A stretch of 64,000 nucleotides of DNA from a virus (IMGVR_UViG_3300013121_000039:64001-128000), one strand, 5' to 3'. Positions 7,551-28,687 are shown, counted from the first letter of the stretch. The notes: generated from the letters alone by a model not told the origin. A program made the numbers and translations.

Positions 7551-9022
7551 GCACGTTTCGCAGGAACACGAAGTCCGAGCAGAAGAAGGGCGGCAAGGGT
7601 CTGCGGGGCAACTGGCGGGAGCAGTTCCGCCTGCCCAAGGGCCAGCCCACCCCGTTCGTCCTGATCAGCGGGGAGTACCCCGACCCCAACCCGCAGCAGG
7701 AGATGGTCGAGATCGACCCGGCCACCGGCCAGTACGTGCCGCCCGTCGTGCCGTACTGGAAGTGGCTGAAGCACCGGCTGAAGGGCGTGAACCAGAACAC
7801 CGGGAAGCAGAAGTTCATCGACGAGCCCTGCTCCCGCGGCTGGGACAAGCACGCGCCGAAGCCCTGCGCCGGCTGCGCCGCCATGGAGTCCGGCGACAAG
7901 CGCATCACCCTGGGCGAGGCCTACTCCATGGGCCTGGTGCACCTCGTGGTCTACCACCGGCACCCGCTCGTCGACCCGAAGAAGGGTCCGGTGATGAAGA
8001 AGGACAACTCCGGGCCGGTCATGGTGGACTCGGAGTGCCTCGGCAAGGCCTGCAACTTCTGCCGGCTCCTCTCGGGGCAGCCGCCCGTCCTCCAGCAGAA
8101 CGAGTTCTGGCCGAACTACGACCGCAACACCATCCAGAACGTCTTCGGGTCGCGTCGCTACCTGGAGATCGGCTCCGGCCACCTCGGGGACATCGGCGAG
8201 TGGGACAGCCAGGTCGGCAGCCGCTGCGGAGGCATCGCCTTCGTGAAGGACGCCGCCGGGCAGTACATCCTGGACCAGAACGGGAACGCGATCCCGAAGG
8301 GGCGGTGCAACAACTTCCTCACCATCGACAGCTACAACTGCCCGAAGTGCGGGAACGTGCTCATCGACACGGCCGCCGACCCGCGCACCCCGGCGCAGCT
8401 GGAGGAGCTGGCGACCAAGAAGTACCCGTGCCACGTCTGCCAGCAGCCGGTCTTCATGAAGGAGGTCAACTCCTGCGATGCCGGGTGCTCCGGCGTCCAG
8501 GTCCACGGCATCTTCGACGGCGTGATCCAGGGCGTGCGGCAGGGTGAGGACACCCAGTCCCACCTCGTGCTGGCCGGGTTCGTCAGCGTCGAGGAGTTCG
8601 AGAGCACGCTGCACCCCTCGGTGCGGGCGCTCTTCCAGGGCAAGACCCTCCGCCAGCGCATCGAGGAGCTCGCCAAGCCGTACGAGTTCTCCGAGCTCTA
8701 CAAGCCGAAGTCGCTGGAGGAGCAGGCCAAGCGGCTGGAGATCCAGGGCTACGGCGGCTACGGCCAGGCGCAGCAGGGCTGGGCGCCCCCGGGCCAGCCC
8801 ATGATGCAGCAGCCGGGCGGCTACTACGGCAACCAGGCCCCGGCGCCGATGCAGTACCCGCCGCAGCAGCAGCCCATGCAGTACCCGCCGCAGCAGCCCC
8901 AGCAGCCGCAGTACCCGCCGCAGCAGCCGCAGAACCCGGGCTACCAGCAGTACGGCCAGCCGCAGCAGGGGCCCGGCCCGGCGCCGTTCGTGCCGCCCCA
9001 GCAGCCCAACTTCGGCAAGTAG
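7541..9022 (+). CDS. Cys-rich protein with Q/P/Y/G-rich C-terminal tail; candidate ssDNA-binding protein
   Basis: Several CxxC pairs; lies between primase and PolA; QYPPQQ repeats. Function inferred from context only. Confidence 0.6.
   Translation: MAMSTFRRNTKSEQKKGGKGLRGNWREQFRLPKGQPTPFVLISGEYPDPNPQQEMVEIDPATGQYVPPVVPYWKWLKHRLKGVNQNTGKQKFIDEPCSRGWDKHAPKPCAGCAAMESGDKRITLGEAYSMGLVHLVVYHRHPLVDPKKGPVMKKDNSGPVMVDSECLGKACNFCRLLSGQPPVLQQNEFWPNYDRNTIQNVFGSRRYLEIGSGHLGDIGEWDSQVGSRCGGIAFVKDAAGQYILDQNGNAIPKGRCNNFLTIDSYNCPKCGNVLIDTAADPRTPAQLEELATKKYPCHVCQQPVFMKEVNSCDAGCSGVQVHGIFDGVIQGVRQGEDTQSHLVLAGFVSVEEFESTLHPSVRALFQGKTLRQRIEELAKPYEFSELYKPKSLEEQAKRLEIQGYGGYGQAQQGWAPPGQPMMQQPGGYYGNQAPAPMQYPPQQQPMQYPPQQPQQPQYPPQQPQNPGYQQYGQPQQGPGPAPFVPPQQPNFGK
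8850..8930 (+). repeat. Coding tandem repeat CAGTACCCGCCGCAGCAGC x3 (QYPPQQ)
   Basis: Three direct copies visible. Confidence 0.8.
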
Positions 9023-9036
9023 CAGAGCAGTCCATG

Positions 9037-9074
9037 AGGCCCTCCCCCGGCGTTGGGGGAGGGCCTTTCCTCTT
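9037..9074 (+). terminator. Intrinsic terminator-like hairpin
   Basis: 12-bp stem AGGCCCTCCCCC/GGGGGAGGGCCT followed by TTCCTCTT. Confidence 0.6.
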
Positions 9075-9085
9075 GGAGCGCCTAC

Positions 9086-11080
9086 ATGCCCGGTTTCGAC
9101 CTGTCTCTTCCGCCCCCGTACTACCCCGAGAGTGAGTACGAGGCGCGGCAGTGGATGAATCACTTCCTCCAGTCCTACAAGCTGAACGACGGGAGCCTTG
9201 GCCTCGACTCCGAGACCAGCGGCATCGACAAGCGCAAGGACGTCGTCATCATCTGGTCGCTCTCGGACGGGGCGAACCGGATCTGCCTCCCAGCCAAGTT
9301 CCTCCAGCTCTACCGCGAGCCGATCCTGGAGAACCCAGAGATCGCGCTCGACCTGACCAACGCCAAGTTCGACGCCCACATGTTCGCCAACACGGGCGTG
9401 GACATCTCGAAGGCTGGGCCCTGGCGCGACACCATCGTCCAGAGCTTCCTCATCGACGAGAACCGGCAGGGGCGGCACGGTCTCAAGGAGACTGTCCACG
9501 ACTTCCTCGGCCGCAGCCCTCCTACCTTCGTCGAGATCTTCGGCAAGGTCCCCACGGCCAAGAAGGGCCAGGTCAGGAAGACCACTGGCGAGCTCATCTA
9601 CGAGGCGCTCGCTGACCCGGAGAAGAAGGAGAAGGCCATCGACTACGCGTCGATGGACGCGTACAACACGACGACGCTCCGGCGCTGGTTCGACCAGCAG
9701 CTCGCGCAGATCTACATGTACGAGGGGCGCAACCTCTTCGACTTCTACCACCAGGTCGAGGTGCCCTTCACGAAGGTGCTCTGGAAGATGGAGCGCCGCG
9801 GCTTCCAGATCGACCCGGTCTACCTGTGGGCTCTCAAGGAGCCCATGGAAGCCAAGATGCAGGAGATCGAGCGCGAGTTCGCCAAGGCCTATGGCCAGCT
9901 CATCAACCTCCGCTCGACCAACGCCGTCCGAGACTTCTTCTTCGGGTTCCTCGGCAAGCAAGCCATCAAGATGACGGATGGCGGGACCACGGGGAACGTG
10001 CAGCCCTCAGTCGACGCCGAAGTCCTGGAGGAGTGGGCCGGCCAGGGCGACGGGTGGGCGAAGCTGCTCCTGGAGCATCGAGGCGTCTCCAAGATCTACG
10101 GCACCTACGTCATGGGGCTCATGGATCTGCTCGACGCGCGGTTCAGGGTCCACACCTCGCTCAACCAGATCGGGGCCCAGTCCGGCCGCCTATCCTCGTC
10201 CGACCCCAACCTCCAGAACATCCCGGCCGCACGCGAAGACCAGTTCAAGATCCGGGAAGCCTTCATCGCCTCGAAGGGCAAGAAGCTCATCGTCGCCGAC
10301 TACGCGCAGTTGGAGATGCGCCTCATGGCGCACTTCTCCGGCGACGAGAAGATGATCAAGGCCATCATCGACGGCATCGACCTGCACTGCTTCACGGTGT
10401 CGGAGATGTACGGCATCCCGTACGAGGAGGTCATCGGCGCCGTCAAGCACGAGAAGAAGTTCAAGAACGGCGACACCACCGAGCCTCTCTCGCAGCGTGA
10501 GGAGGAGCTCCTCATCTACCGGCAGGCCGCCAAGGCCACCGGCTTCGGCATCATCTACGGCATCGGCGGCCCGCGGCTCGCGGCCCAGCTCACCAAGATG
10601 GGGTCGAAGGTCTACTCGCCCGAGGAGGGCTACAAGCTCATCGACAAGTGGTTCGGCGTCTTCCCTGGCGTCCGGGTCTACATCGAGGACCAGAAGAACA
10701 AGATGCGGATGTTCGGCGCGGTCCAGACCCTGACCGGCCGCCTCCGCCGTGCTGGCGACATCGCCAACATGTCGAAGAAGGATGCCGGCCAGACCGAGCG
10801 CACCCTCATCAACGCCACCATCCAGGGGTCTGCGGCCGACATCGCCAAGTCGGCCATGCTCCAGGCGGACTGCGACGCAGTGCTCCTGTCCTGTGGCGCA
10901 GCGATGCTCCTCCAGGTCCACGACGAGCTCATCTTCGAGGTGGACGACGACGAGGAGAAGGTGAAGACGGCCAAGGCGCGCCTCAAGGAGATCATGGAGA
11001 ACCCGTTCCCCGGCCAGTCGCTCCGGGTGCCGCTGCCGGCCGAGGTCGGCGACGCGTACACCTGGGCGGCCGCCAAGTAG
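9086..11080 (+). CDS. polA: DNA polymerase family A (3'-5' exonuclease + polymerase)
   Basis: DSETSG ExoI, NAKFD ExoII, YASMD ExoIII, SGRLSSSDPNLQNIP, ADYAQLEMR, KATGFGIIYG, QVHDEL. Confidence 0.95.
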   Translation: MPGFDLSLPPPYYPESEYEARQWMNHFLQSYKLNDGSLGLDSETSGIDKRKDVVIIWSLSDGANRICLPAKFLQLYREPILENPEIALDLTNAKFDAHMFANTGVDISKAGPWRDTIVQSFLIDENRQGRHGLKETVHDFLGRSPPTFVEIFGKVPTAKKGQVRKTTGELIYEALADPEKKEKAIDYASMDAYNTTTLRRWFDQQLAQIYMYEGRNLFDFYHQVEVPFTKVLWKMERRGFQIDPVYLWALKEPMEAKMQEIEREFAKAYGQLINLRSTNAVRDFFFGFLGKQAIKMTDGGTTGNVQPSVDAEVLEEWAGQGDGWAKLLLEHRGVSKIYGTYVMGLMDLLDARFRVHTSLNQIGAQSGRLSSSDPNLQNIPAAREDQFKIREAFIASKGKKLIVADYAQLEMRLMAHFSGDEKMIKAIIDGIDLHCFTVSEMYGIPYEEVIGAVKHEKKFKNGDTTEPLSQREEELLIYRQAAKATGFGIIYGIGGPRLAAQLTKMGSKVYSPEEGYKLIDKWFGVFPGVRVYIEDQKNKMRMFGAVQTLTGRLRRAGDIANMSKKDAGQTERTLINATIQGSAADIAKSAMLQADCDAVLLSCGAAMLLQVHDELIFEVDDDEEKVKTAKARLKEIMENPFPGQSLRVPLPAEVGDAYTWAAAK

Positions 11081-20417: not shown

Positions 20418-20741
20418 ATGGTCCTTGAGGGCGACGAGCCCCTCTACGAGCTGAACGAGTCAGAGCTGCTGTGGATGGCTCGTCTTCAGGGGCTCCCGCT
20501 TCTTAGGCGAGGAATTCCGCGCGAGGAGCTCGTGGAACTCGTGTCGGGCAGCAGGGCCGTGGAGGAGAGACACCAAGCAAGCACCAACTACACGAGGGGA
20601 CGGCTCGAAGACTTCGTGCAGGCCAACATCGACCGGCTCCGTGGGCAGCTCCCAGGCTGCAACGGGCTGTGTCGAACCTTCCAGTGCACCGAAGGCAAGC
20701 ACATGTCGTGCTTCATGCCGAACGAGGCACTGCTGCTATGA
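20418..20741 (+). CDS. Cys-rich hypothetical protein
   Basis: AGGAGG RBS. Confidence 0.6.
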   Translation: MVLEGDEPLYELNESELLWMARLQGLPLLRRGIPREELVELVSGSRAVEERHQASTNYTRGRLEDFVQANIDRLRGQLPGCNGLCRTFQCTEGKHMSCFMPNEALLL

Positions 20742-22006
20742 GCACCTACCAAGAGTGTTTCACCTGTGCGAAGGTGGGGTACTGCTCAAAGACCGACGTG
20801 CAGAAGATCTTGAGGGGGTTTGTCTGCCCACTCTTCGCTCCGGTGACGGAGCCGATCATCATGGCGCGCTGTTCGATGATCGATCAGTACGGCCCCATCC
20901 CAGCAGCCCGCGCCATGCTGCACAGGCCGCCAGACGCGAACCAGGAGGAGCATGTCCAGATGACCTACGACGCCCCGCCAGCCCAGGGGACGACGTACGC
21001 TGACCGCCGCAAGCAGCTCGAAATCATGTCCTTCACCGAGGTGCGCCTTCTCGGCAACAAGCGGTACAAGACTGCCGACGGCCAGCCCGTGTTGGACTGG
21101 GACGAGTCTCTCCAGATCGACAGGAAGTCCCAGTCCATCGAGAAGATCCTCCAGTTCGAGCTCGTGAACGGCATCATCGTCCCCGACAACCAGCAGTCCA
21201 CCCAACCGCAAGGAGCAGACCAGATGGCCCAGCAGCCCGTGCCCCCGCAGTTCCCGCCCAACGGCGCCCCCCAGATGCCGCAGGCCTTCCAGCCGCCGGC
21301 GCCCGGCGCCCAGCCGCAGCAGATGCCGATGCCGCCCAACGCCCCGCCCATGCCCCCGCAGATGGCGCCGCCGATGCAGCAGATGGCGCCCCCGCCGATG
21401 GGCCCGCCCGCCTTCCAGCCGCCCCCCGGCTTCGCCCCGCAGGCCGGCCCCGGCCCCATGGGCACCCCGCAGCTCCCGCAGACGGAGGCTCCGGCGCCCC
21501 AGGCGGGGGGCAAGAAGAAGCGGAACTCCGGCGCCGCCGCGGCGCCACCGCCGGCGCCCGCGCCCGGGCCGGGCACGCCCCCGCAGCAGCCCAACGCCCC
21601 CATGATGGCCCCGCCGGCCGGGCCCCCGGCCTTCCAGCCGGGCGGCTTCGCGCCGCCGCAGCAGGGCTTCCAGCAGCCCCAGCAGCCCGGGTTCGCGCCG
21701 CCCCAGCAGCAGGGCTTCGCGCCGCCCCAGGCCGCGCCGCAGCCGGCGCCCCAGGCCGCCGTGGACCTCACCCCGGTCCTCCAGCTCATCGACCAGGTGG
21801 GCAAGGCCGTCAACGCCCTCGGGGCCGCCGAGGGTGAGACCCTGGCGCGCCTGGAGCGGAACCTCCAGGTGCTCACCATCGGCGTCATGCACATCTACGG
21901 GTCGCAGACCCAGCTGATGCAGTGGCTCTCCGGCCAGAACAAGGCCGACGCCGTGCAGGACCCGACGAAGTTCGTCGAGTTCCTCTCCCAGTACCTCCCT
22001 CGGTAA
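20738..22006 (+). CDS. Protein with N-terminal Cys cluster and long P/Q/A/G-rich low-complexity region
   Basis: CxxC...C N-terminus; about 200 aa P/Q-rich segment. Confidence 0.7.
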   Translation: MSTYQECFTCAKVGYCSKTDVQKILRGFVCPLFAPVTEPIIMARCSMIDQYGPIPAARAMLHRPPDANQEEHVQMTYDAPPAQGTTYADRRKQLEIMSFTEVRLLGNKRYKTADGQPVLDWDESLQIDRKSQSIEKILQFELVNGIIVPDNQQSTQPQGADQMAQQPVPPQFPPNGAPQMPQAFQPPAPGAQPQQMPMPPNAPPMPPQMAPPMQQMAPPPMGPPAFQPPPGFAPQAGPGPMGTPQLPQTEAPAPQAGGKKKRNSGAAAAPPPAPAPGPGTPPQQPNAPMMAPPAGPPAFQPGGFAPPQQGFQQPQQPGFAPPQQQGFAPPQAAPQPAPQAAVDLTPVLQLIDQVGKAVNALGAAEGETLARLERNLQVLTIGVMHIYGSQTQLMQWLSGQNKADAVQDPTKFVEFLSQYLPR

Positions 22007-22083
22007 GGACGCCGGCAGCCGCGCCGGAGGGAGTGCCTCCTCCCTCCGGCCGGCGTCCCAATACCATCCCGCCCACGACCCTC

Positions 22084-22239
22084 ATGTCGCTGACCAGCGA
22101 CCAGACGAACGTGATGAGTGACGAGCAGCTCATCGCGTTCCTCGACTTCTACCAGGGCGTGCGGCTGCCTCAGGGCACTCCACGCTCAGTGCTGCTCTCC
22201 AAGCTGCACTCGGTCGCCATCGTCGCGAGGGACTTCTGA
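22084..22239 (+). CDS. Small hypothetical protein
   Basis: Short ORF with coding-like codon usage; start uncertain. Confidence 0.4.
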   Translation: MSLTSDQTNVMSDEQLIAFLDFYQGVRLPQGTPRSVLLSKLHSVAIVARDF

Positions 22240-22365
22240 GACGGTGAGAGAACGCGGTTACGAAATCAGGCGTCTCAGTCGCCTGTAGGGACTGCGCCAG
22301 GGGCGAGGTCAACCGCGCGAGATACCTACTCCGCGGCTCCAGCGTGAAGCCACTACCGAGCAGTG
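22236..22365 (+). ncRNA. Candidate pseudoknotted structured RNA
   Basis: CTGAGACG/CGTCTCAG stem; loop CGCGGTT complementary to AACCGCG (22311-22317); extra hairpins. Confidence 0.35.
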
Positions 22366-22406
22366 GAAGCAGGCCTGCGGCGAGTCCCCGGGCCTGCTTC
22401 TTTTTT
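22366..22406 (+). terminator. Intrinsic terminator ending the replication block
   Basis: GAAGCAGGCC/GGCCTGCTTC stem followed by TTTTTT. Confidence 0.85.
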
Positions 22407-22412
22407 ACCCAC

Positions 22413-22441
22413 TTGACTCTGCGGAACGTGCTGACTAAGGT
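22413..22441 (+). promoter_or_regulatory. Sigma70-type promoter of the tRNA operon
   Basis: TTGACT-N17-TAAGGT. Confidence 0.7.
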
Positions 22442-22450
22442 GCTCCTCGC

Positions 22451-22606
22451 ATGACGCTCTTGTCGCAAACACGGTGGTCGGACTCAGTGGCCGAAAGGGC
22501 CCTGCTGTCCCACGTGTATGCGGCGATGGAGTGCGCCACCCTCGTGGCCTCCAAGCGCGACCCCCAGGCCCAGATCCCGTTCAACGGTAGCAGGCCCGGC
22601 CCATAG
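22451..22606 (+). CDS. Putative attenuator leader peptide (51 aa, all 20 amino acids)
   Basis: MTLLSQTRWSDSVAERALLSHVYAAMECATLVASKRDPQAQIPFNGSRPGP*; ATG 10 nt after the -10 box, no SD; stop lies inside the antiterminator. Confidence 0.65.
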   Translation: MTLLSQTRWSDSVAERALLSHVYAAMECATLVASKRDPQAQIPFNGSRPGP

Positions 22607-22645
22607 AAGAACCACTCCAGAGTGGACCCCTTCTAGAGGCCGGGC
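22594..22645 (+). promoter_or_regulatory. Antiterminator hairpin
   Basis: GCCCGGCC(22594-22601)/GGCCGGGC(22638-22645), TAGAAG/CTTCTA and CCACT/AGTGG pairings. Confidence 0.65.
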
Positions 22646-22674
22646 GAGCAAAGGCTCCCCGGCCTCTTCGTTTT
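22635..22674 (+). terminator. Attenuator terminator upstream of the first tRNA
   Basis: AGAGGCCGGG-c-GAGC / GCTC-CCCGGCCTCT stem followed by TCGTTTT. Confidence 0.75.
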
Positions 22675-22708
22675 CCTGAGGAGGCACGGATGAAACGACA
22701 ACCGACAT

Positions 22709-22780
22709 AGGTCCCCATGCCCAAGGCTGGCGAGCTGGTCTCCAAAACCGGCTGGGAGGGTTCGATTCCCTCGGGACCTG
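22709..22780 (+). tRNA. tRNA-Trp(CCA)
   Basis: Cloverleaf, anticodon loop CTCCAAA; D-arm divergent. Confidence 0.8.
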
Positions 22781-22786
22781 CTGTAC

Positions 22787-22860
22787 GCCCTGGTAGCTCA
22801 GCTGGTAGCAGCGCCGCACTCGTAATGCGGAGGTCGCCGGTTCGACTCCGGCTCAGGGCT
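22787..22860 (+). tRNA. tRNA-Thr(CGT)
   Basis: Cloverleaf, loop CTCGTAA. Confidence 0.88.
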
Positions 22861-22871
22861 CACAAGAAGAT

Positions 22872-22947
22872 GCGGCTCTAGCTCAGCTGGTAGAGCGCTG
22901 CCTTGCCAAGGCAGAGGTCGCGGGTTCGATTCCCGTGAGCCGCTCCA
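22872..22947 (+). tRNA. tRNA-Gly(GCC)
   Basis: Cloverleaf, loop TTGCCAA, TCCA end. Confidence 0.93.
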
Positions 22948-22951
22948 GTAC

Positions 22952-23033
22952 GGGGACGTTGACGGTAAGGGTACCGACGCCGGCTGTAAACCGGCTCTCC
23001 TTGAGCAACCTGGTTCGAGTCCAGGCGGCCCCA
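22952..23033 (+). tRNA. tRNA-Tyr(GTA)
   Basis: Loop CTGTAAA, long variable arm. Confidence 0.8.
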
Positions 23034-23046
23034 TTCGCAGCACCGC

Positions 23047-23060
23047 AGTTCTTTGACAAC
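23047..23060 (+). promoter_or_regulatory. boxA-like antitermination element
   Basis: AGTTCTTTGACAAC resembles rrn boxA (GCTCTTTAACA). Confidence 0.6.
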
Positions 23061-23082
23061 TGAATCGCAGTGACAGTGAAGA

Positions 23083-23161
23083 TGCAGGGACGGGTGCGTC
23101 CCACGATGCTCTGCGCCTGAACTCGTGTCAGGAGCAACATCAGCGCGCACCCGTCCCAGCA
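23083..23161 (+). ncRNA. Long hairpin RNA of unknown class
   Basis: Perfect 12-bp GGGACGGGTGCG/CGCACCCGTCCC stem with internal CCTGA/TCAGG stem. Confidence 0.5.
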
Positions 23162-23168
23162 GTACTTC

Positions 23169-23239
23169 GCGTCTCTAGCTCTGGGGAGAGCAGTGGCCTT
23201 TTAAGCCGAAAGAAGTGGGTTCGACTCCCACGGGACGCA
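23169..23239 (+). tRNA. tRNA-Lys(TTT)
   Basis: Loop CTTTTAA; imperfect anticodon stem. Confidence 0.78.
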
Positions 23240-23244
23240 CACAC

Positions 23245-23320
23245 GCCTGCGTAACTCAACTGGTAGAGTACTCGGCTCTTAACCGAGAAGTTGTGGGTTC
23301 GACTCCCTCCGCAGGTACCA
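23245..23320 (+). tRNA. tRNA-Lys(CTT)
   Basis: Loop CTCTTAA, ACCA end. Confidence 0.9.
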
Positions 23321-23323
23321 TCT

Positions 23324-23401
23324 TCCTCGTTGGTGCAGTCAGCTGTTGAGCACGTCGCGCTTGAAGCGCGGAGGCCCTGGCCTTGCGATCAGGACGAGGA
23401 G
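23324..23401 (+). tRNA. Atypical tRNA-like RNA (TGA anticodon, no long variable arm, non-canonical T loop)
   Basis: TCCTCGT/ACGAGGA acceptor; loop CTTGAAG; T loop CCTTGCGA. Confidence 0.5.
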
Positions 23402-23407
23402 CATCAT

Positions 23408-23483
23408 GCGGCACTAGCTCAGTTGGTAGAGCGTCGGCTTCCCAAGCCGAAGGTCGCGGGTTCGAATCCCGCGTGCCGCTCCA
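23408..23483 (+). tRNA. tRNA-Gly(CCC)
   Basis: Loop TTCCCAA, TCCA end. Confidence 0.93.
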
Positions 23484-23487
23484 GCAT

Positions 23488-23562
23488 GCGGGTGTAGCTC
23501 AGTGGTAGAGCTCTGGCCTTCCAAGCCGGGAGTCGACGGTTCGAATCCGTTCACCCGCTCCA
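23488..23562 (+). tRNA. tRNA-Gly(TCC)
   Basis: Loop CTTCCAA, TCCA end. Confidence 0.93.
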
Positions 23563-23565
23563 TCT

Positions 23566-23797
23566 TCTCCGTACCCGGGTAGCTTAATGGCAGAGCTCCA
23601 GCCTATGAAGCTGGCGATGCGGCTTCGAGACCCGCCCTGGGGGAGATCGTCGTGAGGGGTACTGAACCCCAATCGGCTACGGAGAGTACCGGGTCGCGAG
23701 GCCCGGGCAGGCCCTCCTCGATGAGTGGGGAGGTGGAAGATGCAGGGCCATCGGGGCCCGAGCCTCTGCCATGTCGGTGAGATCCCGGCCGCCTGAC
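23566..23797 (+). ncRNA. About 230-nt structured RNA with an embedded tRNA-like domain (ATG anticodon)
   Basis: D arm TAGCTTAATGGCAGAGC, CCAGC-CTATGAA-GCTGG arm, T-like arm; TCTCCGTA/TACGGAGA long-range stem; further hairpins. Confidence 0.5.
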
Positions 23798-23807
23798 ACA
23801 AGTTCGC

Positions 23808-23881
23808 AGAGGAGTCGTCCAACGGCAGGACGCTGGTCTTTGGAGCCAGCTATCTCGGTTCGAATCCGAGCTCCTCTTCCA
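23808..23881 (+). tRNA. tRNA-Gln(TTG)
   Basis: Loop CTTTGGA, CCA end. Confidence 0.88.
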
Positions 23882-23887
23882 CTTCGC

Positions 23888-23962
23888 AGGGGTGTAGTTC
23901 AACGGCAGAACGTCTGGCTCTGGACCAGAAAGTTGAAGGTTCGAATCCTTCCACCCCTTCCA
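23888..23962 (+). tRNA. tRNA-Gln(CTG)
   Basis: Loop CTCTGGA, CCA end. Confidence 0.9.
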
Positions 23963-23966
23963 CCTT

Positions 23967-24042
23967 GCCGGCGTAGCTCAGTTGGCAGAGCAGCCGCCTT
24001 GTAAGCGGCAGGTCGCGAGTCCGACTCTCGCCGCCGGCTCCA
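23967..24042 (+). tRNA. tRNA-Thr(TGT)
   Basis: Loop CTTGTAA, CCA end. Confidence 0.9.
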
Positions 24043-24051
24043 TCTTCACAT

Positions 24052-24124
24052 TCCGGGGTAGCTCAACTGGCAGAGCGGGCGGCTGTTAACCGTCAGGTTG
24101 GGGGTTCGAATCCCTCCTCCGGAG
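24052..24124 (+). tRNA. tRNA-Asn(GTT)
   Basis: Loop CTGTTAA, U1-A72, G73. Confidence 0.9.
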
Positions 24125-24130
24125 CTTCAT

Positions 24131-24205
24131 GAGTCGCAAGTCATCGAGGGATGGCCGCGGTCTGCAACACCGCAGAGCGGAGTTCGACTCTCCGGCGACT
24201 CTCCA
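24131..24205 (+). tRNA. tRNA-Cys(GCA)
   Basis: Loop CTGCAAC, U73, CCA end. Confidence 0.85.
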
Positions 24206-24209
24206 GTAC

Positions 24210-24284
24210 GGCCCTGTCTTCTAGCGGTAGGAAGCCGGACTCTCAATCCGGTAACGGCGGGTTCGATTCCCCCCAGGGTCACCA
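24210..24284 (+). tRNA. tRNA-Glu(CTC)
   Basis: Loop CTCTCAA, ACCA end. Confidence 0.85.
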
Positions 24285-24289
24285 CTCAC

Positions 24290-24362
24290 GTCGCGTTCGT
24301 CCAGGGGCCAAGGACGCTGGCCTTTCAAGCCGGAAACGCGGGTTCGAATCCCGCACGCGATA
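24290..24362 (+). tRNA. tRNA-Glu(TTC)
   Basis: Loop CTTTCAA. Confidence 0.88.
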
Positions 24363-24365
24363 CTT

Positions 24366-24439
24366 CGGGGTGTAGCGCAGCCTGGTAGCGCGCCTGCCTT
24401 GGGCGCAGGAGGTCGCGGGTCCGAATCCCGCCACCCCGA
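24366..24439 (+). tRNA. tRNA-Pro(TGG)
   Basis: Loop CTTGGGC, C1-G72. Confidence 0.88.
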
Positions 24440-24502
24440 CTCGTATTTTAGGTTCAGGCCCGAAGCTAAAATAAGGGGCCGACCTGTGATGGCTTACTTC
24501 AA

Positions 24503-24576
24503 CAGCGTGTAGCTCAGCTTGGTAGAGCACCAGCTTGGGGTGCTGGGGGCCGGAGGTTCAAATCCTCTCACGCTGA
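24503..24576 (+). tRNA. tRNA-Pro(GGG)
   Basis: Loop TTGGGGT. Confidence 0.9.
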
Positions 24577-24582
24577 CTTCTT

Positions 24583-24656
24583 CGGGGTGTAGCTCAGACT
24601 GGTAGAGCGCACGGTTCGGGACCGTGAGGTCGCTGGTTCGATTCCAGTCACCCCGA
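24583..24656 (+). tRNA. tRNA-Pro(CGG)
   Basis: Loop TTCGGGA. Confidence 0.9.
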
Positions 24657-24664
24657 CTCTTCAT

Positions 24665-24742
24665 CCGCTCGTAGCTCACGTGGCCCAGAGCACCCGCCTG
24701 ATAAGCGGGAGGTAGGTGGTTCAAGTCCACCCGAGCGGACCA
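24665..24742 (+). tRNA. tRNA-Ile(GAT)
   Basis: Loop CTGATAA, ACCA end. Confidence 0.9.
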
Positions 24743-24749
24743 TCTTCAT

Positions 24750-24824
24750 GGTGATGTTCGTCCAACGGCAGGACATGGGATTGTGGATCCCAGAATGAGA
24801 GTTCGACCCTCTCACATCACCCCA
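24750..24824 (+). tRNA. tRNA-His(GTG)
   Basis: G-1, loop TTGTGGA, C73, CCA end. Confidence 0.9.
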
Positions 24825-24829
24825 TTCAC

Positions 24830-24920
24830 GGGGGACCTCTCCGCAGCGGAGGGTACATGCCCACCGGCTCTTGCGCGCCGACACGGCTAAGGTCCTGGGG
24901 TTGAAGTCCCCGGTCCCCCT
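24830..24920 (+). ncRNA. tRNA-like RNA with non-canonical core
   Basis: GGGGGAC/GTCCCCC acceptor-like stem and T-like arm, but no standard D or anticodon arms. Confidence 0.45.
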
Positions 24921-24930
24921 CCTTCGTCCT

Positions 24931-25005
24931 GGGGTCATCGTTCATCGGTCAGGACACCGGCCTGTCACGCCGGAGAGGCGAGTTCGATTCTCGCTGGCCC
25001 CGCCA
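24931..25005 (+). tRNA. tRNA-Asp(GTC)
   Basis: Loop CTGTCAC, GCCA end. Confidence 0.9.
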
Positions 25006-25009
25006 TCTT

Positions 25010-25085
25010 GGAGCGATAGCTCAGCAGGTAGAGCACTGGTCTGAAGAGCCGGGTGTCGCAGGTTCGATTCCTGCTCGCTCCACCA
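25010..25085 (+). tRNA. tRNA-Phe(GAA)
   Basis: Loop CTGAAGA, ACCA end. Confidence 0.9.
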
Positions 25086-25087
25086 CC

Positions 25088-25180
25088 CTTCGCAGCAACC
25101 TCATGAATCGCGATGCGGGACCCTACCCCGCCTCTCACGACGACGAGGGCCTCGGTACTTGCGGCCGCGGTGCTGCGAAG
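25088..25180 (+). ncRNA. Structured RNA of unknown class
   Basis: 10-bp closing stem CTTCGCAGCA/TGCTGCGAAG with internal hairpins. Confidence 0.4.
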
Positions 25181-25187
25181 ACTTCTT

Positions 25188-25260
25188 GGGGCCGTAGCTC
25201 AGTTGGGAGAGCGCCTGCTTCGCACGCAGGAGGTCAAGGGTTCGACTCCCTTCGGTTCCA
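25188..25260 (+). tRNA. tRNA-Ala(CGC)
   Basis: Loop TTCGCAC, G3:U70. Confidence 0.9.
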
Positions 25261-25263
25261 CAT

Positions 25264-25339
25264 GCGCGCGTAGTTCAGTGGCCAGAACGCTGCCTTGACA
25301 TGGCAGAGATCGCCGGTTCGAGTCCGGCCGCGCGTACCA
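25264..25339 (+). tRNA. tRNA-Val(GAC)
   Basis: Loop TTGACAT, ACCA end. Confidence 0.9.
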
Positions 25340-25345
25340 CTTCCC

Positions 25346-25421
25346 GGGGCTATAGCTCAGACGGGAGAGCGCCTGGATGGCATCCAGGAGGTCGTCGGTT
25401 CGATCCCGACTGGCTCCACCA
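25346..25421 (+). tRNA. tRNA-Ala(GGC)
   Basis: Loop ATGGCAT, G3:U70. Confidence 0.9.
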
Positions 25422-25427
25422 CTTCAC

Positions 25428-25503
25428 GGGTCCATAGCTCCAACGGGAGAGCAGCGGCTTTGCAAGCCGACGGTTGCCGGTTCGAGTCCGGCTGGATCCA
25501 CCA
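25428..25503 (+). tRNA. tRNA-Ala(TGC)
   Basis: Loop TTTGCAA, G3:U70. Confidence 0.88.
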
Positions 25504-25517
25504 CATCAGGAGTACGC

Positions 25518-25733
25518 ATGCCGCGGCCGCCAGAGGCTCAAGCCCTCTTCGAAAGGAGCGGGATGTTCTCGACTCACGAGAAGTTGGTCTCCTTCCTCTA
25601 CGAGCTGATGAGGGACCACCTTCCCCCAGGAGTCGTCGAGAGGCTCGTCCAGAACAACCAGGAGACTCCGGCGTCGCTGACGAACGGCTACCTGGCGCAG
25701 TACGCCAAGGACCTCGCCGACCGACTCAAGTAG
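25518..25733 (+). CDS. Small hypothetical protein inside the tRNA array
   Basis: AGGAG RBS; stop abuts the next tRNA. Confidence 0.7.
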   Translation: MPRPPEAQALFERSGMFSTHEKLVSFLYELMRDHLPPGVVERLVQNNQETPASLTNGYLAQYAKDLADRLK

Positions 25734-25734
25734 T

Positions 25735-25808
25735 GCCGATGTAGCTCAGAGGCAGAGCACTGCCTTGGTAAGGCAGCGGTCTGGGTTCGACCCCCAGCAT
25801 CGGCTCCA
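25735..25808 (+). tRNA. tRNA-Thr(GGT)
   Basis: Loop TTGGTAA, CCA end. Confidence 0.88.
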
Positions 25809-25812
25809 TCAT

Positions 25813-25890
25813 CCGCCCGTAGCTCAGCTGGATCAGAGCGCTTGACTACGAATCAAGAGGCCGGGGGTTCGAATCCCTCCGGGCGGACCA
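25813..25890 (+). tRNA. tRNA-Arg(ACG)
   Basis: Loop CTACGAA, ACCA end. Confidence 0.92.
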
Positions 25891-25893
25891 CAT

Positions 25894-25971
25894 GCGTCTG
25901 TAGCTCAGATGGAAGAGAGCGCTGGCCTCCGAAGCCAGAGGGCGGGGGTTCGAGTCCCTCCAGACGCGCCA
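25894..25971 (+). tRNA. tRNA-Arg(CCG)
   Basis: Loop CTCCGAA, GCCA end. Confidence 0.92.
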
Positions 25972-25974
25972 CAT

Positions 25975-26049
25975 GCTCCTGTAGCTCAGGTGGACGAGAG
26001 CGGCTGTTTCCTAAACAGCAGGCCGGGTGTTCGAGTCACCCCAGGAGCA
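25975..26049 (+). tRNA. tRNA-Arg(CCT)
   Basis: Loop TTCCTAA. Confidence 0.88.
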
Positions 26050-26055
26050 CTTCAC

Positions 26056-26137
26056 TGCGGGATCGTCTAGTGGCCATGACACCGGGCTCATAACCCGGGG
26101 GCGAAAGCCATCGTGGGTTCGAGTCCCACTCCCGCAA
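26056..26137 (+). tRNA. tRNA-Met(CAT), initiator-like, with long variable arm
   Basis: CCGGG-CTCATAA-CCCGG arm; variable hairpin GGC-GAAA-GCC. Confidence 0.8.
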
Positions 26138-26140
26138 CAT

Positions 26141-26216
26141 GCACGCCGAGGTAGCTGGAGACACCGCCTCTCTCACACGGAGGACTTGCTGGGTTCGATC
26201 CCCAGGGCGTGCACCA
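26141..26216 (+). tRNA. tRNA-Val(CAC)
   Basis: Loop CTCACAC, ACCA end; D-arm divergent. Confidence 0.75.
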
Positions 26217-26223
26217 TCTTCAT

Positions 26224-26308
26224 GTCCAGGTGGCGGAACTGGTAGACGCACCAGCTTGAGGGGCTGGCGGGTAACACCGTGCGGGTTCGATTCCCGCCCT
26301 GGACACCA
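26224..26308 (+). tRNA. tRNA-Leu(GAG)
   Basis: Class II, loop TTGAGGG. Confidence 0.92.
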
Positions 26309-26313
26309 TCTTC

Positions 26314-26397
26314 GGTCGAGTGGCGGAATGGTAGACGCACCTGGCTCAGAACCAGGCGGGTAACACCGTGAGAGTTCGACTCTCTCCTCGACCACCA
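26314..26397 (+). tRNA. tRNA-Leu(CAG)
   Basis: Class II, loop CTCAGAA. Confidence 0.92.
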
Positions 26398-26401
26398 TCA
26401 T

Positions 26402-26482
26402 GCCCGAGTGGCGGAACGGTAGACGCGGCGGACTCAAAACCCGCTGCCGAGAGGCGTGCCGGTTCGAGTCCGGCTTCGGGCA
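26402..26482 (+). tRNA. tRNA-Leu(CAA)
   Basis: Class II, loop CTCAAAA. Confidence 0.9.
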
Positions 26483-26521
26483 CTTCACGCAGTACCACTA
26501 CAACAAGAAAGGAGCGTAGCG

Positions 26522-27066
26522 ATGGACACGTTGGTGTTGTCCCACGCCTACGAGCCCGTCGCACGCGTCCACTGGCAACGGGCCGTAACCCTCCTCTGGG
26601 AGGGCAAGGTCGAGGTCATCGAGGAGTACGAGAGCAGGACGGTCAGGTCGGTCACGCTGGAGTTCAAGATCCCCAGCATCATCCGCTTCCTCAACGTCAT
26701 CCGCCGGCGCAAGCCGTCGATGAAGTTCTCGCGAGAGAACGTCTTCGCTCGGGACAAGGGCCGCTGCCAGTACTGCGGCAACAAGGTCACGAGAGCAGAG
26801 TCGACCTACGACCACGTCACCCCGCGGTCGAAGGGGGGCGGGACGAACTGGGAGAACGTCGTCATCGCCTGCACCCCGTGCAACCAGCGGAAGAGCGACA
26901 AGACCCCGGCCCAGGCCGGCATGAAGCTGCTCTCGGTGCCGGTGAAGCCGGCGCACCTGCCTGGCACCACCAGGCTGACGTTCCTGCTCGACAAGAACGT
27001 GCCGCAGTCCTGGAAGCAGCTCATGATGGACTACGGCTACTGGCACGGCGAGCTGGAGCACGACTA

Positions 27067-27067
<1 letters not shown>
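26522..27067 (+). CDS. HNH endonuclease (McrA-like) inside the tRNA array
   Basis: RDKGRCQYCG...TYDHVTPRSKGG...WENVVIACTPCNQRK. Confidence 0.92.
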
Positions 27068-27158
<91 letters not shown>

Positions 27159-27224
27159 GCGTGTGTGGCCCCGAGCACCTTGGGTGTCTGGCACTCAGCC
27201 AGAGCGCACCATCGGGGCATCCTT

Positions 27225-27314
27225 GGAAGAGTGGGTGAGTGGCTCAAACCACCGGCCTCGAAAACCGGACGTGGGGCAACCTGCGCGAGAGTTCGAATCT
27301 CTCCTCTTCCGCCA
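27225..27314 (+). tRNA. tRNA-Ser(CGA)
   Basis: Class II, loop CTCGAAA. Confidence 0.9.
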
Positions 27315-27319
27315 TCTTT

Positions 27320-27409
27320 GGAAGCGTGGCCGAGTGGCTCAAGGCACCAGCTTGGAAAGCTGGAGGTGGCTCCGGCTGCCCGCAGGTTCGAATCCTGCCG
27401 CTTCCGCCA
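27320..27409 (+). tRNA. tRNA-Ser(GGA)
   Basis: Class II, loop TTGGAAA. Confidence 0.92.
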
Positions 27410-27412
27410 TCT

Positions 27413-27503
27413 GGAGAGGTGGGCGAGTGGCTCATGCCGCCGGTTTGCTAAACCGGTCTGCGATCACATCAAAGCGAGGGTTCGAATCCCTCCCTCTCCG
27501 CCA
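27413..27503 (+). tRNA. tRNA-Ser(GCT)
   Basis: Class II, loop TTGCTAA. Confidence 0.9.
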
Positions 27504-27506
27504 CAT

Positions 27507-27583
27507 GCCCCCGTAGCTCAGAGGACAAGAGCAGCCGCCTTCTAAGCGGACGGTCGCTGGTTCGAGTCCAGCCGGGGGCACCA
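27507..27583 (+). tRNA. tRNA-Arg(TCT)
   Basis: Loop CTTCTAA, ACCA end. Confidence 0.9.
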
Positions 27584-27607
27584 CTGTCACTACGACTCAG
27601 GAGTCCT

Positions 27608-27865
27608 ATGAAGAAGGTCGCGAAGATCACCGGCCGGGCGCTCTGCTACGACGTGCTGGAGTGCCCCATCTGCGAAGCCCGCACCGTCGTCAACGAGAAC
27701 ATGCCCTGGTGCGCCACGTGCGGCACCGAGTACTACCACGGCCGAGACGACCGGAAGACCGGCGCCAGACGCTGGGTCTTCGACACGAAGCGGAAGACGC
27801 CACAGTACGCCTGGGGCAAGGCCCTGAACCTGTCCGGCGGGATACGGATCGGGCCGAAGAAGTAG
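27608..27865 (+). CDS. Zinc-ribbon hypothetical protein
   Basis: AGGAG RBS; CPIC...CATC. Confidence 0.65.
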   Translation: MKKVAKITGRALCYDVLECPICEARTVVNENMPWCATCGTEYYHGRDDRKTGARRWVFDTKRKTPQYAWGKALNLSGGIRIGPKK

Positions 27866-27898
27866 AGGGGCGGGCCGCTGCGCCCGCCCCTCTTTCTT
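27864..27898 (+). terminator. Terminator closing the tRNA operon
   Basis: AGAGGGGCGGGC/GCCCGCCCCTCT stem followed by TTCTT. Confidence 0.75.
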
Positions 27899-27936
27899 AG
27901 CTCACTTCACCATTGGAGTGGCCTTCCTTTCCCCAG

Positions 27937-28257
27937 TTACCCGCCGAAGAGCTTCTCGTCGCGGCACTGGATGCAGAACGTGTCTGCGTCTGGGTACTGC
28001 CCCTTCAACATGAAGACCCGGTGACCGCAGGGCAGCTCACGAGTCCGGAAGTGCCGGTTCGTGTAGTGCGTCCGCATGTGCGAAGCGCGAGGGTGCTTGT
28101 CTCCCACGTCGATCGACACCTTCGGCCCAACCAGCCCCGGCTTGGGAGCGTGGTAGGACGACTTGGAGACGTCGGTGTAGTAGACCTTGCGCTTGTGGTG
28201 ATGGTCAGTCGGGCCCCCGGACGAGCGCCTGCTGCGCCCGAAAACAAGGGTAGCCAT
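27937..28257 (-). CDS. Basic hypothetical protein with C-terminal Cys/His cluster
   Basis: GGAGG RBS; PCGH...CIQC. Confidence 0.6.
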   Translation of the reverse strand: MATLVFGRSRRSSGGPTDHHHKRKVYYTDVSKSSYHAPKPGLVGPKVSIDVGDKHPRASHMRTHYTNRHFRTRELPCGHRVFMLKGQYPDADTFCIQCRDEKLFGG

Positions 28258-28361
28258 ACAGCCTCCTAGAGCTGGTCGAGATCAGGTCTGACCGCTGGCG
28301 CGCCTCACGGGCGCTGGGCGGGTTCTCGGGACCGGTCTAGGAGTGGGACATGACGGCGCGG

Positions 28362-28390
28362 AAGGTAGACGCGACGCCACGTAGAGTCAA
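28362..28390 (-). promoter_or_regulatory. Sigma70-type promoter
   Basis: Minus strand TTGACT-N17-TACCTT. Confidence 0.6.
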
Positions 28391-28408
28391 GCGGTCATTT
28401 CCAAGCAG

Positions 28409-28437
28409 AAGGGGGCCCAGCTTGTACTAGGCCCCCT
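28409..28437 (-). terminator. Hairpin ending the minus-strand operon
   Basis: AGGGGGCC/GGCCCCCT stem. Confidence 0.5.
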
Positions 28438-28447
28438 CGCGATCAAC

Positions 28448-28687
28448 TCAGCTTGCTTGCTTCAGGCGAATGAACTCATGCCAGCCGCACTTGTGGGGGC
28501 AGACGACGCTCGGGCTCACCTGGCCGTCGGCCGTGATGGTGTGGTTGACGAGGGACAGCAGATGGTCGCATTTCGGGCACACCAAGGCCACCGTCTGCTT
28601 GAAGACCGGACCTGGGAAGACACTGGCGATCCATGGTCGCCAGCGTCCCTTGGTCCAAGCCCCGCCGTCTGGCAGGAGCTCCTGCAC
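28448..28687 (-). CDS. Small Cys/His protein, DUF6527-like
   Basis: CPKC...VSPSVVC...CGWH pattern. Confidence 0.5.
   Translation of the reverse strand: MQELLPDGGAWTKGRWRPWIASVFPGPVFKQTVALVCPKCDHLLSLVNHTITADGQVSPSVVCPHKCGWHEFIRLKQAS

Follow-up and report, generated by a model that had tools for sequence, protein, structure and literature searches.

A predicted translation-dependent attenuator with a near-complete codon repertoire before a phage tRNA array

In the phage DNA IMGVR_UViG_3300013121_000039:64001-128000, a 64,000-nucleotide (nt) window of a 138-kilobase (kb) virus record with 65% GC (called W below; positions are those of the window), 41 transfer RNA (tRNA) genes are preceded on the plus strand by a short leader, which consists of a promoter, an open reading frame (ORF) of 51 codons and two competing RNA structures, an antiterminator and an intrinsic terminator. 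We give an even chance to the reading that this leader is a ribosome-mediated transcription attenuator gating the whole array: it would be ON by default and OFF when a ribosome reaches the final proline codon and UAG in time, and with its near-complete stock of codons almost any shortage in decoding would raise tRNA synthesis. Sequence comparison supports the attenuator geometry and a design that samples nearly every tRNA. An earlier note on this DNA had likened the arrangement to trp/his-type attenuation, and the elements of that geometry, i.e., a short ORF, a terminator, an antiterminator sharing a strand with it, and a stop codon in the 5′ arm of the antiterminator, are all present.

Leader ORF and its codon repertoire

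The leader ORF (22451-22606) encodes all 20 amino acids by 35 distinct codons (versus 25 ± 3) and ends with UAG; its extent and its complete amino-acid set, both claimed in the earlier note, were confirmed from the sequence. Among real 51-residue windows, about 1.2% contain all 20 amino acids. The codons had also been described as spread in a way unlike the genes of the phage, which are biased toward GC at the third codon position (GC3). The spread holds, as the number of distinct codons indicates, but the composition is gene-like: GC contents at the three codon positions are 0.59, 0.55, and 0.86, and the mean GC3 of the genes is 0.90. The peptide belongs to no Pfam family.

If Watson-Crick, G:U, and I wobble pairings are allowed, the leader ORF contains codons for 35 of the 41 array tRNAs (36 of 42 in a second count), and the anticodons left without a codon are UUU, CCC, UCC, GAC, UGC, and UCU. 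The same six species had been named before, with totals of 34 matched among 40 tRNAs that are replaced here by 35 of the 41 genes predicted by ARAGORN. By comparison, 51-codon windows of W genes cover 23-24 ± 3-4 tRNAs, and none out of about 8,500-11,000 such windows reaches 35-36. Position-wise shuffles of the ORF cover 29.6 ± 2.0 (P = 6e-4) and nucleotide shuffles 28.1 (P = 3e-4), and recoding of the same peptide by the codon usage of the phage gives 31.0 (P = 0.004). Coverage without the last 8 codons is 31, still high against 21.5 ± 3.5.

The earlier note had proposed comparing leaders of related tRNA arrays, and indeed a homologous ORF is found at the same place in three relatives from the IMG/VR database (G2, G3, and G4) and in 11 further DNA loci (L128-L138). 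The leader ORFs cover 36/42 of their own tRNAs in W, 34/40 in G2, 14/16 in G3, and 17/25 in G4, with probabilities relative to real-gene windows of below 1e-4, 1e-4, 0.015, and 0.005, respectively. The codon-tRNA match is thus replicated in G2, where the recoding test gives P = 0.010 and coverage remains significant even when the codons in common with W are kept constant (P = 0.001); it is seen more weakly in G3, G4, L130, L131, and L135.

Several features of these ORFs look like signs of translation. The ATG is invariant in the 11 DNA loci with analysed ORFs. In W it is located 9 nt after the -10 box, so that the mRNA is predicted to be leaderless or to have a 5′ untranslated region (UTR) of at most 2-3 nt, and an in-frame TAA at 22436 makes an earlier start impossible. 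The spacing of 7-9 nt between the -10 box and ATG, a leaderless layout, is common to W, G2, L129, L130, L131, L132, and L134, and the loci with a 5′ UTR (L128, G3, and G4) have GGAG 10-11 nt before the ATG. The start context therefore appears to vary among loci as translation would require. Seven of the eight high-GC members have a GC3 of 0.84-0.90 (0.73 in G2), with GC contents of about 0.6 and 0.55 at the first and second codon positions, and the other two frames have stops and only 11-17 amino-acid types. G2, G3, and G4, which were found by synteny and not by ORF calls, all keep the frame.

The peptide itself is poorly conserved. Its identity between W and G2 is 42%, compared with a median of 59% for W-G2 orthologues; among close relatives, the three codon positions account for 20, 25, and 20 variable columns, respectively, and nonsynonymous changes are more numerous than synonymous ones. 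The best-conserved “residues” are those encoded by arms of RNA helices. Nevertheless, family members contain 18-20 amino acids, mostly 19-20, within 47-51 residues, and do so only in the ORF frame; this completeness is significant in nucleotide shuffles for each of nine high-GC members (P = 0.0003-0.013). In a simulation of neutral drift from the subfamily consensus, the summed diversity was 273 ± 4 against 289 observed, although the lineages are not fully independent and the resulting P is optimistic. These patterns suggest that the peptide sequence is not under selection while the repertoire is. The combination of high codon and amino-acid diversity specific to the ORF frame with low peptide conservation agrees with what the earlier note had put forward as a check.

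Two exchanges of residues are seen in the alignment. Ile and Asn are swapped between two positions near the C-terminus in different members, and Trp and Lys are swapped between positions 9 and 11 in L134 (2941-3090 of that locus); the composition is preserved in both cases.

Competing RNA structures and their conservation

The 5′ arm of the antiterminator (region 2, 22594-22609) comprises the last two and a half codons of the ORF, the UAG stop (22604-22606), and AAG. It pairs with region 3 (22630-22645), and a small apical hairpin, CCACT/AGTGG (22612-22625), is formed between the two arms. Region 3 overlaps the 5′ arm of the intrinsic terminator (22636-22674), in which a 9-base pair (bp) stem, a bulge, and a 4-bp stem (22636-22666) are followed by the tail UUCGUUUU. 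The pairing between 22594-22609 and 22630-22645 to the exclusion of the terminator, noticed earlier from the sequence, is real, and the two structures are mutually exclusive with similar energies (-31.6 kcal/mol for the antiterminator and -30.4 kcal/mol for the terminator). In local folds the antiterminator state of W is about 4 kcal/mol more stable than the terminator state, and the antiterminator is transcribed first. Folding with and without the stop region masked, a check proposed in the same note, gave the expected outcome in silico: free W RNA folds as the antiterminator, and masking of -15 to +12 around the stop codon turns it into the terminator. The location of the stop codon inside the 5′ arm would thus let ribosome position select the structure, a matter of modelled geometry and not of function. 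The distance from the stop codon to the U-tract is about 70 nt, and no 1:2 helix that would sequester region 2 was found.

The eight loci whose sequence is complete to the end of the terminator all retain both structures, with compensatory changes, which bears out the covariation sought by the earlier note. In seven of them (W, L130, G2, L128, L131, L134, and L135) free RNA folds as the antiterminator and stop-masked RNA as the terminator, with energies of -26 to -33 kcal/mol. In the remaining one, L132, which has a three-tRNA array, the antiterminator is weakened and the free RNA already adopts the terminator. Covariation was judged on folds of each sequence, because MAFFT put paired insertions out of register. 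For example, where region 3 has an additional G (G2 and L128), region 2 has C in place of A and region 4 has one more C. The pair at the base of the terminator varies between G-C and A-U among the loci (GAGG/CCTC versus AAGG/CCTT), in a distribution that requires at least two events; the terminator stem also covaries between GAGC/GCTC and GACC/GGTT, and the apical helices differ yet pair (CCACC/GGTGG, ACCC/GGGT, and TGCCC/GGGCA).

In the 209-kb phage G2, the promoter is arranged as in W and the ATG follows the -10 box by 7 nt; the 49-codon ORF of this phage contains all 20 amino acids and has the same proline-UAG ending within the same antiterminator/terminator pair. The two distant relatives G3 and G4 (52% GC) have the promoter, an ORF of 40 or 33 codons preceded by GGAG, and, at the stop codon, a hairpin of 12 bp.

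An additional helix, P1, is predicted inside the ORF (22469-22517), where 22469-22477, encoding Thr-Arg-Trp, pairs with 22509-22517, ending with Val-Tyr. Its arms (Thr-Arg-Trp with Ala-Val-Tyr) are the most conserved stretches of the family alignment, and a rare TAT codon is kept in them. P1 may serve as a pause or folding helix.

The stop codon of W-type leaders is always UAG, and in W another UAG follows in frame within region 3 (22634-22636). A tRNA with the anticodon CUA, an amber suppressor labeled “Pyl” by ARAGORN, is encoded in G2 (G002:C1:106647-106722) and in L130 (4922-4996), 1-2.3 kb upstream of the leader. Suppression at UAG would let ribosomes continue into the switch. Other frames that span the switch (22518-22679 and the G2 counterpart) were also considered as genes and rejected, as the frame differs relative to the conserved bases.

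Proposed mechanism and alternative explanations

In the proposed mechanism, a strong host-type promoter would start a leaderless mRNA at about 22449-22451, and 70S ribosomes would translate the 51-codon ORF. In the nascent RNA alone, region 2 would pair with region 3, and RNA polymerase would continue into the 41 tRNA genes. A ribosome at UAG, which lies inside region 2 after the invariant proline codon, would cover region 2; region 3 would then pair with region 4, and transcription would stop at 22667-22674. Fast decoding would thus turn the array off, and a delay at almost any codon, or no translation, would turn it on. Since the ORF is stocked with every amino acid and with codons for most array tRNA species, it would report general decoding capacity, and the array tRNAs would feed back negatively on their own synthesis. 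The start of transcription, translation of the ORF, its coupling to RNA polymerase, and the efficiency of termination are steps that we infer, and the cause of slow decoding in nature would presumably be tRNA cleavage, tRNA depletion, or codon demand. A role in counter-defence is conceivable.

Several points weigh against this reading. The U-tract of the W terminator is interrupted, and G3 and G4 have no U-tract terminator and show weak diversity signals. Efficient leaderless translation in the host is assumed. As most family members were found through called ORFs, only G2, G3, and G4 provide an unbiased test of ORF maintenance. The even distribution of substitutions together with conserved helices in the ORF, such as P1, is also the pattern of a non-coding structured RNA. 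Leaders in front of reduced arrays (17 tRNAs in L131 and three in L132) keep 19-20 amino acids, so that the leader and the array roster are not tightly matched. Finally, the codons for Phe, Asn, Gly-GCC, Ser-GCU, Pro-UGG, and Pro-CGG tRNAs are confined to the last 9 codons, and a ribosome stalled there would cover, not free, region 2. The idea in the earlier note that a stall at almost any codon frees the antiterminator therefore fits the repertoire and the geometry but would fail for this final part of the ORF.

Among other explanations, the leader might be a translation-coupled attenuator sensing overall translation status, e.g., ribosome availability, inhibitors, host shut-off, or infection stage, with the repertoire being secondary. 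The folds give the antiterminator whenever the stop codon is not reached, even in a wholly untranslated RNA, the full-repertoire leader is kept before reduced arrays, and an array in Anabaena is induced by translation inhibitors in general (PMC8421152). This explanation, however, leaves unaccounted for why 19-20 amino acids are kept despite free drift of the peptide, and why, in both W and G2, the synonymous codons are distributed among more tRNA species than would be expected from codon usage, and we regard it as unlikely. We see slightly less chance for a structured non-coding RNA switch with an incidental ORF, in which a ligand or protein, such as Ro60 in the manner of its binding to Y RNAs, a tRNA or tRNA fragment, or a Nus-type factor, would choose the fold. 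The leader is indeed highly structured (z-scores of -3.6 to -5.2), the most conserved “peptide” motifs are RNA helix arms, and the substitution pattern resembles a ratio of nonsynonymous to synonymous rates (dN/dS) of about 1. Moreover, three non-phage contigs (those of P0015, L132, and L134) place the element divergent from Ro60, the usual site of a Y RNA gene (PMC4201824). On the other hand, such a switch would not be expected to show three-base GC periodicity, amino-acid completeness specific to one frame, an open frame in G2, G3, and G4, or alternation between leaderless starts and UTRs with GGAG, and the leader is also borne by phages without Ro60. Rfam gave no match for the leader, including T-box and YrlA, and only tRNAs and weak chance matches in 22000-28500. 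The YrlA covariance model did not match the leader at E-values up to 1, and it matched only tandem tRNAs, a known class of false positives (PMC4201824).

It is very improbable that the ORF is an ordinary small protein gene with a leaky terminator, from which the tRNAs would be transcribed by passive read-through and in which the overlap of the hairpins would be incidental. A promoter, an ORF, and a terminator are the layout of any monocistronic gene, and the GC3 is gene-like; but the peptide has neither purifying selection nor a Pfam family, all homologues found precede tRNA arrays, and the competing pairing is kept with compensatory changes in the eight complete loci.

Transcription unit, genomic context and known systems

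The attenuator proposed here would control a transcription unit of its own, in the order of terminator, promoter, ORF, antiterminator/terminator, and tRNA-Trp. Upstream of the leader is a rightward block of replication genes including those for a helicase, primase, DNA polymerase, UvsX-like recombinase, ThyX, and RusA. The block is closed by an intrinsic terminator (22369-22406, with the stem GCAGGCC/GGCCTGC and a T-run, read from the sequence) that sets the leader apart, and a terminator is found in the same position in G2 and L130. The sigma-70-type promoter TTGACT-N17-TAAGGT (22413-22441; TTGACT at 22413-22418 and TAAGGT at 22436-22441), reported in the earlier note, is borne out by direct reading. 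A strict sigma-70 scan called no promoter at the leader, TAAGGT agreeing with TATAAT at three of six positions; the promoter is accepted because its layout (TTGAC[TAG], a spacer of 17-18 nt, and TANNNT) is conserved in the nine relatives read (G2, G3, G4, L128-L132, and L134). The pattern TTGACN-N16-18-TANNNT has only two matches in the 138-kb genome. The other is on the minus strand, and no promoter match is found between the leader terminator and the array, so that the promoter before the leader is the only match available to the array. This other consensus promoter (TTGACT-N17-TACCTT, 28390-28362, in the region 28362-28430) is preceded by a terminator and serves the last small leftward gene (27937-28257), whose 5′ UTR is about 95 nt long.

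The array (22710-27583, plus strand, predicted by ARAGORN) starts 35 nt after the leader terminator and serves all 20 amino acids. With 41 tRNAs in 4.9 kb on one strand, it is comparable to the horizontally transferred L-arrays, which have dozens of densely packed tRNA genes and are found on mobile elements. An HNH endonuclease ORF (26456-27067; Pfam HNH_5, E = 2e-15) interrupts it between tRNA-Leu and tRNA-Ser, and many more HNH insertions stretch the array to about 20 kb in relatives. The last gene of the unit is a Cys-rich ORF of 85 amino acids (27608-27865), and a strong terminator (27865-27898) ends the unit.

Some details of the unit and its surroundings are worth recording. Between the leader terminator and the array, GAGGAGG (22678-22684) can pair with the 3′ arm and tail of the terminator and is followed by a mini-ORF of six codons (22690-22710; Met-Lys-Arg-...), whose stop overlaps the first base of tRNA-Trp. 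GGAGG after the terminator tail is kept in L130, G2, L131, L132, L134, and L135, and the mini-ORF only in L130 (6213-6244 there); in G2 an HNH gene is inserted at this spot. The first gene of the array, tRNA-Trp (CCA, 22710-22781), is below the Rfam tRNA threshold in W and its relatives, with tRNA-Sec as the best match at 28-36 bits. A tRNA-His with the anticodon AUG (A34; 23572-23644) is present alongside the usual one with GUG. Two genes upstream of the leader, a protein of 445 amino acids (20669-22006) has a long low-complexity center rich in Pro, Gln, and Ala and no Pfam match.

The DNA polymerase of W is at most 32% identical to that of any isolated phage, which leaves W without a known cultured relative, and searches of isolated phages found no match for the leader (blastn) or for a large ORF (tblastn). 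Four IMG/VR contigs share the polymerase at 55-70% identity, and three of them have a syntenic array starting at tRNA-Trp. G007, a more distant polymerase relative, has scattered tRNAs and a transfer-messenger RNA (tmRNA) but no homologous array or leader, and other more distant ones have few or no tRNAs. The order Trp-Thr-Gly-Tyr-Lys-Lys-Gly... is syntenic in relatives on both phage and non-phage contigs. Among L128-L138, every copy extending beyond the stop codon precedes the same array; L129 ends 16 nt past the stop codon, and the array of L134 is partly decayed. An exhaustive profile search, and then a word search with an enlarged alignment, yielded over 20 additional peptides of 43-51 residues and two more called with N-terminal extensions. 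The W peptide alone had no match in IMG/VR, a word-index protein search with four peptides returned only the query, and leader DNA patterns found only the relatives already known. Two metagenome scans found no leader, nor did two scans of GTDB species genomes, which means that no named host genome carries the element.

The element is also found outside phages, near genes for RNA repair and RNA quality control (in the contigs of P0015, P0004, L132, and L134). The leader and array of the three contigs mentioned above (P0015, L132, and L134) are located within a few hundred bases of Ro60; one Ro60-adjacent contig also has RtcB, RtcA, and RtcR, and another has RlaP. In a further non-phage contig, the leader is located downstream of RtcB. 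The G2 phage encodes RtcB as well, while no Ro60 was found in the five phage records searched. The neighboring Ro60 proteins place these contigs in Bacteria, most commonly Pseudomonadota, which is uninformative on the host. In the P0018 contig, the leader and array adjoin a SIR2-domain gene and an IS110 transposase. A broader proposal, which we hold more tentatively than that of the attenuator itself, is that the element is a mobile “tRNA homeostat” module common to phages and bacterial RNA-repair islands (Ro60, Rtc, and RlaP), in which the ORF would be selected for its codon repertoire and not for its peptide, and long arrays would be inducible by almost any tRNA shortage.

Leader-peptide attenuators are well known from amino-acid operons, such as trpL, hisL, leuL, and pheL, and the multivalent thrL and ilvL. 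The W leader resembles them in having a short ORF proximal to the promoter, an antiterminator that is incompatible with an intrinsic terminator and bears the stop codon at its 5′ arm, and a structural choice decided by ribosome position; the stop-to-U-tract distance is also about 70 nt in trpL. They differ, however, in that the W ORF has no tandem run of one regulatory codon but one or a few of almost every codon class, that W-type ORFs are longer (47-51 codons) and mostly leaderless, and that the regulated genes are those for tRNAs, not enzymes. Modeling of leader-peptide attenuators has been described (PMC1183508). As no 1:2 helix is present here, the untranslated state is predicted to be ON and not super-attenuated. 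A search of the literature found no description of a leader-peptide attenuator before tRNA genes.

Ribosome-stalling attenuators of antibiotic-resistance genes (erm and cat leaders, and those of the vmlR and bmrCD type) and the Cys-responsive leaderless upstream ORF attenuators of mycobacteria work on a similar principle: slowed translation of a short, sometimes leaderless ORF remodels the RNA and turns on genes that bring relief. What these attenuators detect, however, is a drug-bound ribosome or one particular amino acid, and none of them is known to control tRNA genes or to maintain a complete set of amino acids. T-box riboswitches also sense tRNA status through a choice between terminator and antiterminator, but a T-box is untranslated and binds one uncharged tRNA directly, and W has no T-box match. 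Y RNAs of the YrlA type are comparable in that three non-phage copies of the leader are near Ro60 and that a structured RNA is followed by tRNA-like sequence; the leader differs by its open, GC3-biased frame, by the real tRNA genes behind it, and by its presence in phages without Ro60.

The trn operon of Anabaena sp. PCC 7120 is a long tRNA array that is normally silent and is induced by translational stress together with rtcB (PMC8421152). Its control was traced to direct repeats covering the -10 box and the start of transcription, which implies a presumed repressor, and no leader ORF or attenuator was described (PMC8421152). The regulation of tRNA genes is explicitly stated there to be largely unknown (PMC8421152). 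The two arrays are alike in their length and horizontal mobility, and that of Anabaena is linked to rtcB; the promoter of W, in contrast, looks constitutive, and the candidate control element is a cis-acting leader.

The tRNA arrays of phages are commonly viewed as constitutive helpers for codon usage or as anti-defence cargo. If the attenuator reading is true, a leader gating 41 tRNA genes according to decoding speed at nearly every codon would tie tRNA supply to translation capacity in a direct feedback loop. Such a leader would account for the silence of supernumerary arrays as long as they are not required, would provide a cis-acting mechanism for the stress-inducibility of L-arrays, and would link the arrays mechanistically to tRNA-damage responses (Rtc and Ro60). 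The leader would be a compact and portable sensor of decoding capacity, and also a clear example of a drifting sequence whose amino-acid composition is under selection. A complete repertoire in a freely evolving peptide is an unusual evolutionary pattern, testable on sequence data alone.

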